From Vulcanimicrobiales bacterium (GTDB lineage Bacteria; Vulcanimicrobiota; Vulcanimicrobiia; Vulcanimicrobiales; Vulcanimicrobiaceae), in NCBI GenBank assembly GCA_038244445.1, contig JBBRTL010000001.1:1-45349 (forward strand): DNA of 45,349 bases, given 5' to 3'. This document shows, piece by piece, positions 28,862 through 33,082 of the stretch. The translations under genes were made by a program, and so were the position numbers. Below the pieces are notes generated by a model. It was given only the letters and a program-made list of their open reading frames with translations. It was not told where the DNA came from and did not search any database. Position 1 is the first letter of the stretch; every line of letters starts with the position of its first letter.

Positions 28862-31800
28862 GTGTCGGACACGACGGTCAGCGTCACCCTTCCCGAGATG
28901 GGCGAATCGGTCAGCGAAGGCTCGATCGTCGAGTGGCGTAAGAAGGTCGGCGATTTCGTGGCCGAGGGTGACACGCTGGTCGACGTGACCACCGACAAGG
29001 TCGACGTCGAAGTGCCCGCGACCGCCTCCGGCGTGATCGCCAAGATCCTCGCGGGCGAAGGCCAGACGGTCGCGGTCGGCGCAGCGCTTGCCGAGATCAC
29101 CGTGTCGAGCAATGGCGCCGTCCCCGCGCCGGCAGGGCCGGCCGCGCCGTCGGGACCGCCGCGGTTGGTCGACGTGACGCTGCCCGAGATGGGCGAGTCG
29201 GTGACCGAAGGCTCGATCGTGCAGTTCCGCGTCAAGGCCGGTGACTTCGTGAACGCAGGCGACACGATCGTCGACGTGACGACCGATAAGGTCGACGTCG
29301 AAGTGCCCGCGCCCGAGAGCGGCGTCGTCACCGAGATCAGCGCGAAGGAGGGCGACACGATCGCCGTCGGCACGAAGTTGGCGGTGTTAGATGCGTCCCT
29401 CGACTCTGGTCGCGTTGCTCTCGACGCTCGGGATGACATGGAAAGTAAGGCGGTCGCTGCGGCTCCCGCGGTGACGCAGCAGAGCGTTCCGCAGCGTGCT
29501 TCCGGTGAGGTGGTGGCTTCGCAGCCGGCGCGTCGGATGGCGGGGAAACTGGATATCGATCTCGGGTTCGTACGCGGGAGCGGTCCGAACGGACTGATCT
29601 TGCGTAACGACGTCACGTCGCAGGCTTCGCAGGCGAAGCGCACGCACGGCGCTGCGGCGCAGCCGCAACCGCCGCTGGCGGCCGGCGCGAAGCTTACGAC
29701 GCTCAAGGGTCCGGCGGCAGCGCTTGCGGCCTACATGGAACAGAGCCTGACGATCCCGACCGCGACCTCGTTCCGCACGCTCTCGGTCGACGTGCTCGAC
29801 GCACGTCGCAAAGAACTCAACGGCGCGATCAAAGCGGCCGGACGCGGCGAGAAGATCTCGTTCACCCATATCATCGCGTTCGCGCTCGCGCAAGCGGCCC
29901 GCGAGTTACCGTCTATCACCAACTCGTTCCGGCGCGAGAACGGCCAGCCGACGCGCGTCGAACCGGGCGTACATCTCGGCATCGCGGTCGACACCGAACG
30001 CAAAGACGGCTCGCGCTTCCTGATGGTTCCGGTCATCAAGAACGCCGGCGACCTGGACTTCGTGCAGTTCCGCCTCGAGTACGAAGCCTTGATCGCCAAG
30101 GCGCGCGAGAACAAACTCACCGCCGACGATCTGCAAGGCGCGTCGTTCACGCTCACCAATCCGGGCGGCATCGGCACGGTCGCGTCGGTCCCGCGGCTGA
30201 CGGCCGGCCAGGGCGCGATCATCGCGGTCGGCGCGCTCGGCTATCCGCCGGGCTTCTCGGGTGCGAACGAACAGGCGCTCCGCTCGCTCGGCATCAGCAA
30301 GATCATGCAGATGACGAACACCTACGATCATCGCGTGATCCAAGGCGCGCAGTCGGGCGAGTATCTCCGTCGCGTCGACGATCTCTTGCACGGCAAGGAC
30401 GGCTTCTACGAAAACGTCTTCGCCGCGTTCGGCCTGGAAGCGGCCGCATCGCCGCACGTCGCAACCGCCGCACCGAGCGTCGCCGGTAGTGCGCAAGCCG
30501 CGCCTTCCGATGAGATGCTCCGCGCCGTCGCCGCCGGTATGGCGATCGTCGCGGCCTATCGCACGTACGGCCATCTGGCGGCGAATCTCGATCCGCTCGG
30601 ATCGAAACCGCCGGGCGATCCATCGCTCGAACCGGCGACCTGGGGCCTCACGCCCGCCTTACAGAGCGCGATTCCGGCCTCGGTTCTGCGCGTCAAAGTT
30701 CCGGGCAACACGCTCGCCGAGGTGCTGCCGCGCCTCAAAGAGACGTACGCCTCCACGATCGCCTACGAAGTCGAGCACATCTCCGATACCCAGCAACGCG
30801 AATGGCTGCGCGACCATATCGAAGCGGGTCGCCATCAAGTCGCGCTCTCGCGCGATCGCCAGGTCGAGTTCTTGCAGCGCCTGACGCGCGTCGAAGTGCT
30901 GGAGCGCTTTCTGCGCAAGAACTTCCTCGGCGCCAAGACGTTCTCGGGCGAAGGCCTCGACGTGATGGTTCCGATGCTCGAGGAGACGCTTGAGATGCTC
31001 TCCGCCGAGGGCGTGCAGTGCGCCGTGATCGGCATGGCGCATCGCGGCCGCCTGAACGTGATCGCACACGTCGTCAACAGCCCGTACGAAGAGATCCTCG
31101 GCGAGTTCGAGGCGGCCCACCGTCGCGGCGAAGGTGTCGGCGACGACGACGTGACCGGCGACGTGAAGTACCACCACGGCGCGAGCGGCGTCTATCAACT
31201 CGCCAACGGCAAGACCATCAGGGTCCGGCTCGCGCACAACCCGAGCCACCTCGAAGCGGTCGATCCGGTGGTCGAAGGTCGCGCCCGCGCGCTCCAGACC
31301 GATCATTCCACCGGCGTACCGACGACCGACGTGAAGAAAGCTGCACCGATCCTGATCCACGGCGACGCGGCGTTCACCGGCCAAGGCATCATCTCGGAGG
31401 TCTTGAACCTGCAGTCGCTACCGGGCTACACGACCGGCGGCACCCTGCACGTCATCGCGAACAACCAGATCGGTTTCACGACCGATAGCGGCGACAGTCG
31501 CTCGACGCGCTATGCCTCGGATCTCGCCAAGGGATTCGACGTACCCATCATCCACGTCAACGCCGACGACGTCGACGCCTGCATTTCGGCCGTCCATCTC
31601 GCGATGGAGTTCCGCAAGCAGTTCCAGCGCGACGTGCTGATCGACTTGATCGGCTATCGCCGCCTCGGTCACAACGAACAGGACGAGCCGGCCTACACGC
31701 AACCCTCGATGTACGACAAGATCAAGACGCATCCGAGCGCGCGCGAACTCTTCGCGAACAAGCTGATCGCGCAAGGCATCGTGACGGCCGATCAGTCGAA

Positions 31801-33082
31801 CGAGATGGTCGCGACCGCGACCGCGCGACTGACCGAGGCGCTCAAGCGCGTCAAGGCCGAAGATCAGGCCGGCGCGATCGCCAAGCTGCGCGAGAAGAAG
31901 CTGCCCGAGCCGCCGGCGCTGGCGCCCGTCTCGAAGGCGCAGTTGCTGGAGTGGAGCGAGCGGGTCGTCTCGGTGCCGCCGGACTTCCAGATCAACAAGA
32001 AACTGCAGACCCAGTTCGAGCGTCGCCGAGGCGTGATAGCCGAGAAGAATCTGGCGGACTGGGGCATGAGCGAAGCGCTCGCGTTCGCGTCGTTGGTCAC
32101 GGCCGGCTTCCCGATCCGCCTCACAGGTCAGGATACCGAACGCGGCACGTTCAGCCATCGGCACGCACTGCTCCACGATCCGCGCACCAACGCGGAGTAC
32201 GTGCCGCTACAGCACGTCGGAGAGAAGCAGGCGTCGTTCGAGATCCGGAACAGCCCGCTCTCCGAGTACGCGTGCGTCGGCTTCGAGTACGGCTACTCGG
32301 CCGCGGTGCCGGTCGGCCTCGTGCTCTGGGAAGCCCAGTTCGGCGACTTCGTCAACGGCGCGCAGATCGTCATCGATCAGTTCATCGTCGCGGGTCAGGC
32401 CAAGTGGGGCCAGCTCTCGCGCCTGACGCTCTTGCTCCCGCACGGCTACGAAGGCCAGGGACCGGAGCACTCGAGCGGGCGTCTCGAACGCTTCTTGCAA
32501 CTCGCCGCCGAGGGCAATCTGCGGGTCGCCTATCCGTCGAACGCGGGCAACTACTTCCACCTGTTGCGCCTGCAGGCGAGCACGCCGAACGCGGTGCCGC
32601 TGGTGGTGATGACGCCCAAGTCGCTGCTCCGCTTGGAGACGGCCTCGGGCGATCTCGACGACATGGCGACCGGCACGTTCAAGCCCGTCATCGACGACGC
32701 GCGCGTGGCCGATAAGGCGACGATCGAACGCGTGATCCTGTGCTCGGGCAAGATCTACTACGATCTGGTCGGCTCGGAACTCTACGGCAAGACGAGCAAG
32801 ACCGCGATCGTGCGGATCGAGATGCTCTCGCCGCTTCCGTTCACCGAGATCAACAACGCGATCGCGAGCTATCCGAACGCGAAGAAGCTGATCTGGGTCC
32901 AGGAAGAGCCGAAGAACATGGGTGCCCGCGCCTACGTCCGCCGCCGCCTGCTCGAACACCGCGACGACCGCCTCGACATCGAGTACGTCGGCCGCGGCTA
33001 CCGCGCCTCACCCTCCGAAGGATACGCCGGCGCCCACGCCGTCGAGCAAGAGCGCATCATCGCGCAGGCGTTGACGGAGTAG
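28862..33082 (+). CDS. fused 2-oxoglutarate dehydrogenase: lipoyl x2 + E3-binding domain + E2o-type acyltransferase + E1o (Kgd/OdhA-like but with lipoyl domains)
   Basis: 1406 aa, GTG start. Two lipoyl domains (VTTDKVDVEVPA with K46 and K143), PSBD (ARRMAGKLDIDLGFVRGSGPNGLILRNDV), acyltransferase (…NTYDHRVIQGAQSGEYL), and E1o (AYRTYGHLAANLDPLG, GMAHRGRLNV, HGDAAFTGQG, LLLPHGYEGQGPEHSS). Confidence 0.93.
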   Translation: MSDTTVSVTLPEMGESVSEGSIVEWRKKVGDFVAEGDTLVDVTTDKVDVEVPATASGVIAKILAGEGQTVAVGAALAEITVSSNGAVPAPAGPAAPSGPPRLVDVTLPEMGESVTEGSIVQFRVKAGDFVNAGDTIVDVTTDKVDVEVPAPESGVVTEISAKEGDTIAVGTKLAVLDASLDSGRVALDARDDMESKAVAAAPAVTQQSVPQRASGEVVASQPARRMAGKLDIDLGFVRGSGPNGLILRNDVTSQASQAKRTHGAAAQPQPPLAAGAKLTTLKGPAAALAAYMEQSLTIPTATSFRTLSVDVLDARRKELNGAIKAAGRGEKISFTHIIAFALAQAARELPSITNSFRRENGQPTRVEPGVHLGIAVDTERKDGSRFLMVPVIKNAGDLDFVQFRLEYEALIAKARENKLTADDLQGASFTLTNPGGIGTVASVPRLTAGQGAIIAVGALGYPPGFSGANEQALRSLGISKIMQMTNTYDHRVIQGAQSGEYLRRVDDLLHGKDGFYENVFAAFGLEAAASPHVATAAPSVAGSAQAAPSDEMLRAVAAGMAIVAAYRTYGHLAANLDPLGSKPPGDPSLEPATWGLTPALQSAIPASVLRVKVPGNTLAEVLPRLKETYASTIAYEVEHISDTQQREWLRDHIEAGRHQVALSRDRQVEFLQRLTRVEVLERFLRKNFLGAKTFSGEGLDVMVPMLEETLEMLSAEGVQCAVIGMAHRGRLNVIAHVVNSPYEEILGEFEAAHRRGEGVGDDDVTGDVKYHHGASGVYQLANGKTIRVRLAHNPSHLEAVDPVVEGRARALQTDHSTGVPTTDVKKAAPILIHGDAAFTGQGIISEVLNLQSLPGYTTGGTLHVIANNQIGFTTDSGDSRSTRYASDLAKGFDVPIIHVNADDVDACISAVHLAMEFRKQFQRDVLIDLIGYRRLGHNEQDEPAYTQPSMYDKIKTHPSARELFANKLIAQGIVTADQSNEMVATATARLTEALKRVKAEDQAGAIAKLREKKLPEPPALAPVSKAQLLEWSERVVSVPPDFQINKKLQTQFERRRGVIAEKNLADWGMSEALAFASLVTAGFPIRLTGQDTERGTFSHRHALLHDPRTNAEYVPLQHVGEKQASFEIRNSPLSEYACVGFEYGYSAAVPVGLVLWEAQFGDFVNGAQIVIDQFIVAGQAKWGQLSRLTLLLPHGYEGQGPEHSSGRLERFLQLAAEGNLRVAYPSNAGNYFHLLRLQASTPNAVPLVVMTPKSLLRLETASGDLDDMATGTFKPVIDDARVADKATIERVILCSGKIYYDLVGSELYGKTSKTAIVRIEMLSPLPFTEINNAIASYPNAKKLIWVQEEPKNMGARAYVRRRLLEHRDDRLDIEYVGRGYRASPSEGYAGAHAVEQERIIAQALTE
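28877..29395 (+). repeat. intragenic tandem duplication encoding the two lipoyl domains
   Basis: Copies at about 28877-29104 and 29165-29395. They share long identical runs, e.g. the 24-mer AAGGTCGACGTCGAAGTGCCCGCG at 28997-29020 and 29288-29311, plus CCCGAGATGGGCGA and GAAGGCTCGATCGT in both. Confidence 0.85.

Follow-up and report, generated by a model that had tools for sequence, protein, structure and literature searches.

In the canonical 2-oxoglutarate dehydrogenase complex, as in Escherichia coli (structures 2jgd and 1c4t), the thiamine diphosphate (ThDP)-dependent dehydrogenase (E1o, SucA) and the succinyltransferase (E2o, SucB) are two polypeptides. OdhA of Corynebacterium glutamicum (8p5t) and Kgd of Mycobacterium smegmatis (8p5r) instead carry an E2o domain upstream of E1o in one chain, behind a helical 2-oxogl_dehyd_N segment; these proteins have no lipoyl domain or peripheral-subunit-binding domain (PSBD), and have been studied as an actinobacterial peculiarity and drug-target candidate because their lipoyl arms must be borrowed from the pyruvate dehydrogenase E2 (E2p). 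In a survey of Pfam architectures across finished genomes, Bruch et al. (bioRxiv 10.1101/2020.07.24.212647) found three Thermoleophilia with an 'LB-PS-E2-E1' full fusion of E2 and E1o, in which two lipoyl domains and an E3-binding domain take the place of the 2-oxogl_dehyd_N segment. They termed this form 'never reported before', speculated that it is independent of lipoyl domains in trans, and found it accompanied by an E2p without the actinobacterial C-terminal insertion. The full fusion goes unmentioned in the OdhA/KGD structural paper (PMC10415282), and our literature search returned no paper tying it to Eremiobacterota. Here we analyzed such a gene in a 45,349-nucleotide stretch of DNA (the window; positions 1 to 45,349 of contig JBBRTL010000001.1, assembly GCA_038244445.1) from a Vulcanimicrobiales bacterium, whose metagenome-assembled genome (MAG) comprises 2.43 Mb on 262 contigs and is 93% complete. 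We propose that its product, with two lipoyl domains, a PSBD, an OdhA-type E2o and an E1o in one polypeptide (Table 1), is likely to serve the 2-oxoglutarate dehydrogenase complex as both E1o and E2o, in a self-sufficient single chain of ~150 kDa that would need only dihydrolipoamide dehydrogenase (E3, Lpd) as partner.

The open reading frame (ORF) begins with GTG and encodes 1406 amino acids (aa) with no internal stop, and all ORFs antisense to it are ≤331 aa. In a Pfam scan every domain match exceeded its cut-off, in the order PF00364, PF02817, PF00198, PF00676, PF02779 and PF16870. The two Biotin_lipoyl domains summed to 133 bits, E3_binding reached 31.8 bits (cut-off 23.7), and the E1o part comprised E1_dh (aa 699–1003), Transket_pyr (1066–1257) and OxoGdeHyase_C (1264–1404). 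The putative lipoyl-lysines K46 and K143 sit in the same motif, VDVTTDKVDVEVP, and the acyltransferase motif quoted in a first-pass annotation of this DNA, TNTYDHRVIQGA, does begin at residue 485, with its DHR triad at 489–491. Among NCBIfam models, the OdhA/Kgd multifunctional family NF008907 matched aa 225–1405 with 1442 bits (cut-off 878). Residues 543–1405 passed both SucA equivalogs (TIGR00239, 977 bits, cut-off 770; NF006914, 1089 bits, cut-off 764), and the sucB equivalogs were missed (248 bits versus cut-offs of 379 for TIGR01347 and 449 for NF004309). No 2-oxogl_dehyd_N (PF16078) motif was found in the fusion protein or elsewhere in its genome. The SucA N-terminal E2-binding peptide would be unnecessary where E2o and E1o are covalently linked, and it is indeed absent.

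Predicted structures agreed with this layout. In an AlphaFold2 (AF2) model of aa 1–290, built on 19 orthologues, residues 1–80 and 101–180 formed beta domains and 221–258 a small helical domain (mean predicted local distance difference test (pLDDT) 81–93 per 10-residue block), separated by linkers at 86–96, 183–214 and 262–269 with pLDDT <50. Foldseek matched this N-terminal model to solved lipoyl domains with target TM-scores of 0.70–0.84. A second model covering aa 225–1406 had a mean pLDDT of 79; its best Foldseek matches were chains of the OdhA/KGD hexamers (~1160 aligned columns, E = 4e-92), and its E1o part matched solved SucA domains with target TM-scores of 0.85–0.90. The first-pass annotation had read the gene, from its letters alone, as a 1406-aa E2o–E1o chain with lipoyl-lysines at K46 and K143 and a PSBD, and the profile scan, predicted folds and Foldseek matches all bear this out.

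The E2o core is, by its sequence characters, of the OdhA/Kgd type. The KGD chain 8p5r_A aligned with aa 259–1402 of the window protein at 915 bits, and the active-site residues of OdhA E2o described by Yang et al. (Ser129, Thr258, Tyr314, His316 and Gln320) correspond to S303, T432, Y488, H490 and Q494; neither these residues nor the ThDP motif GDAAF...NNQxGFTT vary among 35 relatives. According to the literature, the counterparts of Ser303 and Tyr488 bind the succinyl carboxylate; OdhA orthologues and solved E2o enzymes keep them, and E2s with other specificities do not. In the alignment, fused E2 cores with or without lipoyl domains shared characters missing from free E2s: PTATS replacing IPHxT, five extra residues inserted behind the VD motif, LTNPG, TYDHRxIQGA and an extension FYE..F..LG at the C-terminus. 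In the E2o-core tree, too, the fused cores made up a single clade (100/100), set off by a very long branch. A single derived E2o core is thus common to all fused proteins.

The fusion is a class-wide trait. A first scan, with one genome per species, located ~50 Eremiobacterota loci that were 50–77% identical to the window protein across the N-terminal 613 aa; most were uninterrupted frames of 1320–1460 aa. The group also goes under the labels Vulcanimicrobiota, WPS-2, Baltobacteraceae, Tumulicola, Elarobacter and Velthaea. With a query spanning the E2–E1 junction, we then searched 201 genomes of the phylum. In the class to which the window belongs, 112/113, 3/3 and 15/15 genomes of its three families had the junction (130/131 in total, closed chromosomes included), as did 1/69 genomes of the phylum's other families. 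In some relatives (L022, L024, L032, L048, L056, and L059) the gene is broken into at least two frames, and many database entries are 'partial' E2s, as might be expected if separate sucB and sucA genes had been joined here by a missed stop or an assembly frameshift. We regard such an artefact as exceedingly improbable, since nearly all junction matches lie in stop-free frames of ~1300–1500 aa (single-contig genomes included), the split copies are exceptions with breaks at differing positions, the 'partial' E2 matches fall at contig ends or within broken genes, and the N-terminal peptide expected of a separate sucA is missing after the E2 core. The split copies look like indel or sequencing errors and like the source of the 'E2, partial' entries. 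When the E2 half served as the sole query, every match was a fragment of this fusion, and neither a free E2 of that type nor an added outgroup emerged. Genes 56–77% identical were also seen on contigs labelled Acidiferrales, Verrucomicrobiia, Limnocylindria, Acidoferrum, Nitrosotalea and Dormibacteraeota (L013, L017, L041; P0272, P0278, P0292, P0303); these contigs are probably mis-binned or mislabelled and not true occurrences.

Along the chain, the lipoyl domains and PSBD are as well conserved as the catalytic domains. Across 19 orthologues with two lipoyl domains, mean identity to the window protein was 83% for lipoyl domain 1 (LD1), 68% for lipoyl domain 2 (LD2), 62% for the PSBD, 77% for the E2 core and 73% for E1o, versus 17–48% for the four linkers (17–42% for those flanking the PSBD). 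K46 and K143 were invariant in these orthologues, and the invariant PSBD residues were R225, D233, G241, P242, G244, R248 and D250. The number of arms differs within the class: frames of ~1310–1330 aa, the majority, contain one lipoyl domain, and those of ~1410–1470 aa contain two, as in the window protein, whose own LD1 and LD2 are 68% identical (52/77 aa, 28877–29395). In one relative, L028, the second lipoyl domain clusters with the first domains of close relatives, a possible sign of repeated duplication or of gene conversion. The lipoyl-domain tree, a poorly resolved one of 75 columns for which the motif search also caught spurious 'LD3' segments, faintly suggests repeated changes in domain number.

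The partner genes are consistent with a chain that requires only E3. The fusion is the only E1o in its own genome, as it is in each of five closed genomes of the family, which have exactly one E1o. Three E2 catalytic domains were detected in the MAG: that of the fusion; that of AceF (542 aa; TIGR01348, 645 bits), encoded behind an AceE-type E1p on contig C65; and that of a third E2 with one lipoyl domain on contig C97, adjoining E1 alpha and beta genes. Two of the closed genomes share the same trio. The MAG has no other E2o, and Lpd (TIGR01350, 542 bits) is encoded on contig C83, followed by LipB and LipA (L084:1309-2928, L109:791-2358). The E3 and lipoylation genes lpd, lipB and lipA thus lie in one cluster, away from all E1 and E2 genes. 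A second, Lpd-like flavoprotein disulfide reductase is encoded on the minus strand of contig C81 (L085:1426-3249; 372 bits, below the Lpd cut-off); the Arg/Asp-rich N-terminal extension of ~130 aa in its 607-aa ORF is probably due to an over-extended start. No convincing candidate for an OdhI/GarA-like forkhead-associated (FHA) regulator was found in the genome: among its three FHA proteins, the small one is FhaB-like (64 bits versus a cut-off of 125), with no OdhI-type N-terminal extension seen.

The OdhA-like catalytic core, the presence of an AceF with two lipoyl domains and the cross-talk between complexes in actinobacteria would all be compatible with a mixed pyruvate/2-oxoglutarate dehydrogenase supercomplex as in OdhA, in which the fusion's own lipoyl domains are auxiliary and the arms and E3 sites of AceF are used or shared. 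We consider this unlikely, given that the helical segment through which OdhA contacts its partner (2-oxogl_dehyd_N) is absent and that the fusion's own lipoyl domains and PSBD are strongly constrained. Moreover, AceF resembles an ordinary cubic E2p rather than the reduced trimeric actinobacterial form. It aligned with the E2p of E. coli (293 bits) and Azotobacter vinelandii (285 bits) up to its second-last residue, whereas the match to the trimeric C. glutamicum E2p (104 bits) ended 11 residues early, in a comparison of overall alignments. The closeness of AceF to cubic E2p agrees with the finding of Bruch et al. that full fusions go together with an ordinary E2p.

A different substrate or reaction was also weighed. 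The homologous DHTKD1-type E1a enzymes reached 538 bits, so that a 2-oxoadipate dehydrogenase might be imagined; the chains of M. smegmatis KGD (MsKGD) among the matches are deposited as '2-oxoglutarate decarboxylase' and 'multifunctional 2-oxoglutarate metabolism enzyme', in line with a non-oxidative Kgd-like decarboxylase or carboligase. Both functions appear very improbable: the E1o part exceeds the SucA equivalog cut-offs, the residues for the succinyl carboxylate in OdhA/E2o (S303 and Y488) are conserved, genomes with SucC (the beta subunit of succinyl-CoA synthetase) contain no E1o besides the fusion, and conserved lipoyl arms would be senseless in a purely non-oxidative enzyme. NCBI and JGI annotate such proteins as multifunctional 2-oxoglutarate enzymes (NCBI name 'multifunctional oxoglutarate decarboxylase/...'); since NCBI already uses the multifunctional name, the existing annotation is unaffected by our reading.

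For the combined E1o–E2o that we favor, the following cycle can be envisaged. The C-terminal ThDP domain would decarboxylate 2-oxoglutarate and succinylate the lipoyl group on K46 or K143, on its own arms or those of a neighboring chain. The arm would then deliver its succinyl load to the OdhA-type E2o site, where the H490/Q494 dyad, with S303 and Y488 holding the succinyl carboxylate, would form succinyl-CoA. The free-standing Lpd, docked on the PSBD, would re-oxidize the reduced arm. Homology with OdhA/KGD makes a hexameric core probable, with two E2o trimers bridged by three E1o dimers, and such a core would display 12 lipoyl domains and six PSBDs. A 24-mer cube is unlikely because the C-terminus of the E2o domain runs into E1o. 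E2p, on which the Corynebacterium and Mycobacterium enzymes depend, would be dispensable.

Several points weigh against this proposal. Domain content, active-site residues, conservation and gene inventory are direct observations, and it is the lipoylation, E3 binding and docking, hexameric state and independence from E2p that we infer; the literature search gave no biochemical or structural data for any full fusion. The monomer AF2 model missed the E2o/E1o orientation of OdhA (TM-score 0.64–0.67, root-mean-square deviation ~26 Å) and therefore says nothing about the hexamer, which rests on homology. SucC was not found in the 93%-complete MAG; we attribute this gap to incompleteness, as 24/25 relatives in the family encode SucC, giving succinyl-CoA its usual sink. 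The genome also contains a 2-oxoacid:ferredoxin oxidoreductase-like gene, so the fusion need not be the sole route from 2-oxoglutarate.

The evolutionary histories of the two catalytic parts were compared using E1o trees (FastTree and IQ-TREE; 150 representatives from an exhaustive search plus named loci) and approximately unbiased (AU) tests (iqtree2, LG+F+G4, -fast searches, for which the constrained trees are perhaps slightly suboptimal). One E1o clade united the full fusions of Eremiobacterota, Thermoleophilia and Solirubrobacterales with OdhA-type fusions of Gemmatimonadota. It was nested in a group (SH-like approximate likelihood ratio test (SH-aLRT) 100) that also held P0125, P0127 and P0129, canonical SucA proteins in which the 2-oxogl_dehyd_N peptide is present, the P0125 family originating from Gemmatimonadota and Longimicrobiales. 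Classical OdhA of Actinomycetes and Acidimicrobiia formed a separate E1o clade elsewhere in the trees. Against solved structures, the E1o core of the window protein gave 692 bits with KGD, no better than the 698 bits with E. coli SucA or the 710 bits with Vibrio SucA. Forcing all fused E1o into one clade was 226 log-likelihood units worse and was rejected (AU p = 2.4e-5), as was a single clade of all lipoyl-bearing forms (AU p = 0.005); a clade of the main Eremiobacterota–Thermoleophilia full fusions was not rejected (AU p = 0.053). Of the Thermoleophilia and Solirubrobacterales proteins, L054 and P0124 branched next to the Eremiobacterota clade as its sister group in the E1o trees. In the E2o-core tree, L054, L058 and P0124 shared clade B with the Eremiobacterota proteins. 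The lineages in the E1o trees are all expected to be GC-rich, and because shared GC richness would tend to join lineages, base composition is probably not the cause of the E1o split.

To judge from these trees, the E2o core and the E1o backbone did not share one history: the E2o module may have passed from one SucA backbone to another, the E1o part may have been exchanged, or loss of the module may have regenerated canonical-looking SucA genes. Three positions for the root of the E2o core could not be separated (ΔlnL 0.2–5, AU p 0.17–0.53). These root positions leave room for a lipoyl arm that was 'retained' as well as for one that was 'regained', and for either architecture as the earlier one. 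Tentatively, and as something a little short of probable, we suggest that the OdhA-type E2o core has evolved as a module in its own right, found on two or more unrelated SucA backbones (a classical one in Actinomycetes and Acidimicrobiia; a Gemmatimonadota-like one in Eremiobacterota, Thermoleophilia and some Gemmatimonadota), bearing either the SucA N-terminal peptide or the full lipoyl/PSBD arm. The lipoyl-bearing form would then be a separate, long-lived lineage and the smallest self-contained 2-oxoglutarate dehydrogenase core known (one gene plus E3), and not the direct ancestor of OdhA.

How far the window protein departs from each described system can now be stated. With canonical SucA and SucB it shares the chemistry and the summed domain inventory, but it is one polypeptide with a divergent OdhA-type E2o and no SucA N-terminal E2-binding peptide. 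OdhA/Kgd has the same order of E2o and E1o, the same active site and the same derived characters, yet lacks the lipoyl domains and PSBD that the window protein possesses, carries the 2-oxogl_dehyd_N segment that it lacks, and has an E1o core from another SucA lineage. In the E1o trees as in the E2o-core tree, the nearest relatives without lipoyl domains are the Gemmatimonadota fusions (L060, L062, L063, L065, and L079; 48–52% identical), which consist of 2-oxogl_dehyd_N, E2o core and E1o without a lipoyl domain or PSBD. OdhA-type fusions thus occur in Gemmatimonadota (L060:2512-6309, L063:5689-9333), although the architecture is usually termed actinobacterial; other Gemmatimonadota encode a canonical SucA of the same E1o lineage (the P0125 family). 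In one Gemmatimonadota genome with an OdhA-type fusion, the free E2s have C-termini of ordinary appearance. The nearest match in architecture is the Thermoleophilia full fusion, with the same Pfam set and order and likewise no PF16078. Over the N-terminal 613 aa, Thermoleophilia and Solirubrobacterales proteins share 47–50% identity with the window protein, and one Thermoleophilia MAG (L054) has one lipoyl domain. They belong to another phylum, whereas the window form is class-wide in Eremiobacterota with one or two arms.

The architecture was therefore already known, from one bioinformatic note; new here are the phylum Eremiobacterota, the class-wide spread and the variable arm number. The interpretation offered by the first-pass annotation survives in part. 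A whole E2o is joined to E1o in one chain with an OdhA/Kgd-type core, as the NF008907 match and the invariant active-site residues indicate. The novelty it implied does not hold, since Bruch et al. described the same architecture with the same prediction of self-sufficiency. Its suggestion that the form is ancestral or intermediate to OdhA is not upheld either, the E1o parts being placed apart and the E2o-core root being compatible with several positions.

The gene is flanked upstream by a PF03601 membrane protein and downstream by a CMD-family protein and an Ada/AlkA fusion, so that, as the first-pass annotation noted, neither sucB nor lpd is adjacent. A promoter and terminator scan gave no signal above chance. 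A further domain insertion was seen in the 1091-aa SucA P0133, in which a cyclic-nucleotide-binding domain (PF00027, aa 132–213) lies between the 2-oxogl_dehyd_N peptide and the E1o core, the position occupied by the E2o core in OdhA-type proteins.

Table 1. Coordinates of the fusion gene and its predicted domains in the window.
Feature	Position	Strand	Evidence
Whole gene, LD-LD-PSBD-E2o-E1o fusion, 1406 codons plus stop	28862..33082	+	Domain profiles; class-wide single-frame orthologues of 1300–1470 aa
Lipoyl domain 1, aa 5–78; putative lipoyl-lysine K46 at codon 28997–28999	28874..29095	+	PF00364; TTDKV motif; block pLDDT 81–93
Lipoyl domain 2, aa 104–176; putative lipoyl-lysine K143 at codon 29288–29290	29171..29389	+	Best Pfam stretch 104–176; folded in AF2 model
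Predicted peripheral-subunit (E3) binding domain, PSBD, aa 219–254	29516..29623	+	PF02817 (E3_binding) at aa 222–251; helices 221–230 and 248–258, block pLDDT ~90
OdhA-type E2o succinyltransferase catalytic domain, aa 281–510; predicted catalytic H490 at codon 30329–30331	29702..30391	+	PF00198 (2-oxoacid_dh, aa 281–510), 158 bits
E2o–E1o linker, aa 511–555	30392..30526	+	48% mean identity; pLDDT <50 at aa 532–549 (model residues 308–325)
E1o core (SucA-type, ThDP-dependent 2-oxoglutarate dehydrogenase), aa 556–1406	30527..33079	+	TIGR00239, NF006914, PF00676, PF02779, PF16870

A relative of OdhA with its own arms and E3-docking site offers a natural control for the arm dependence of OdhA, and would show whether a hexameric E2o–E1o core needs nothing beyond E3 to complete the cycle. 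That the E2o core and E1o have conflicting histories is relevant to how domain shuffling rebuilt 2-oxoacid dehydrogenase complexes. Within this class of uncultured soil bacteria the gene occurs throughout the sampled families, so the fused form is a stable solution in these organisms and not an oddity.

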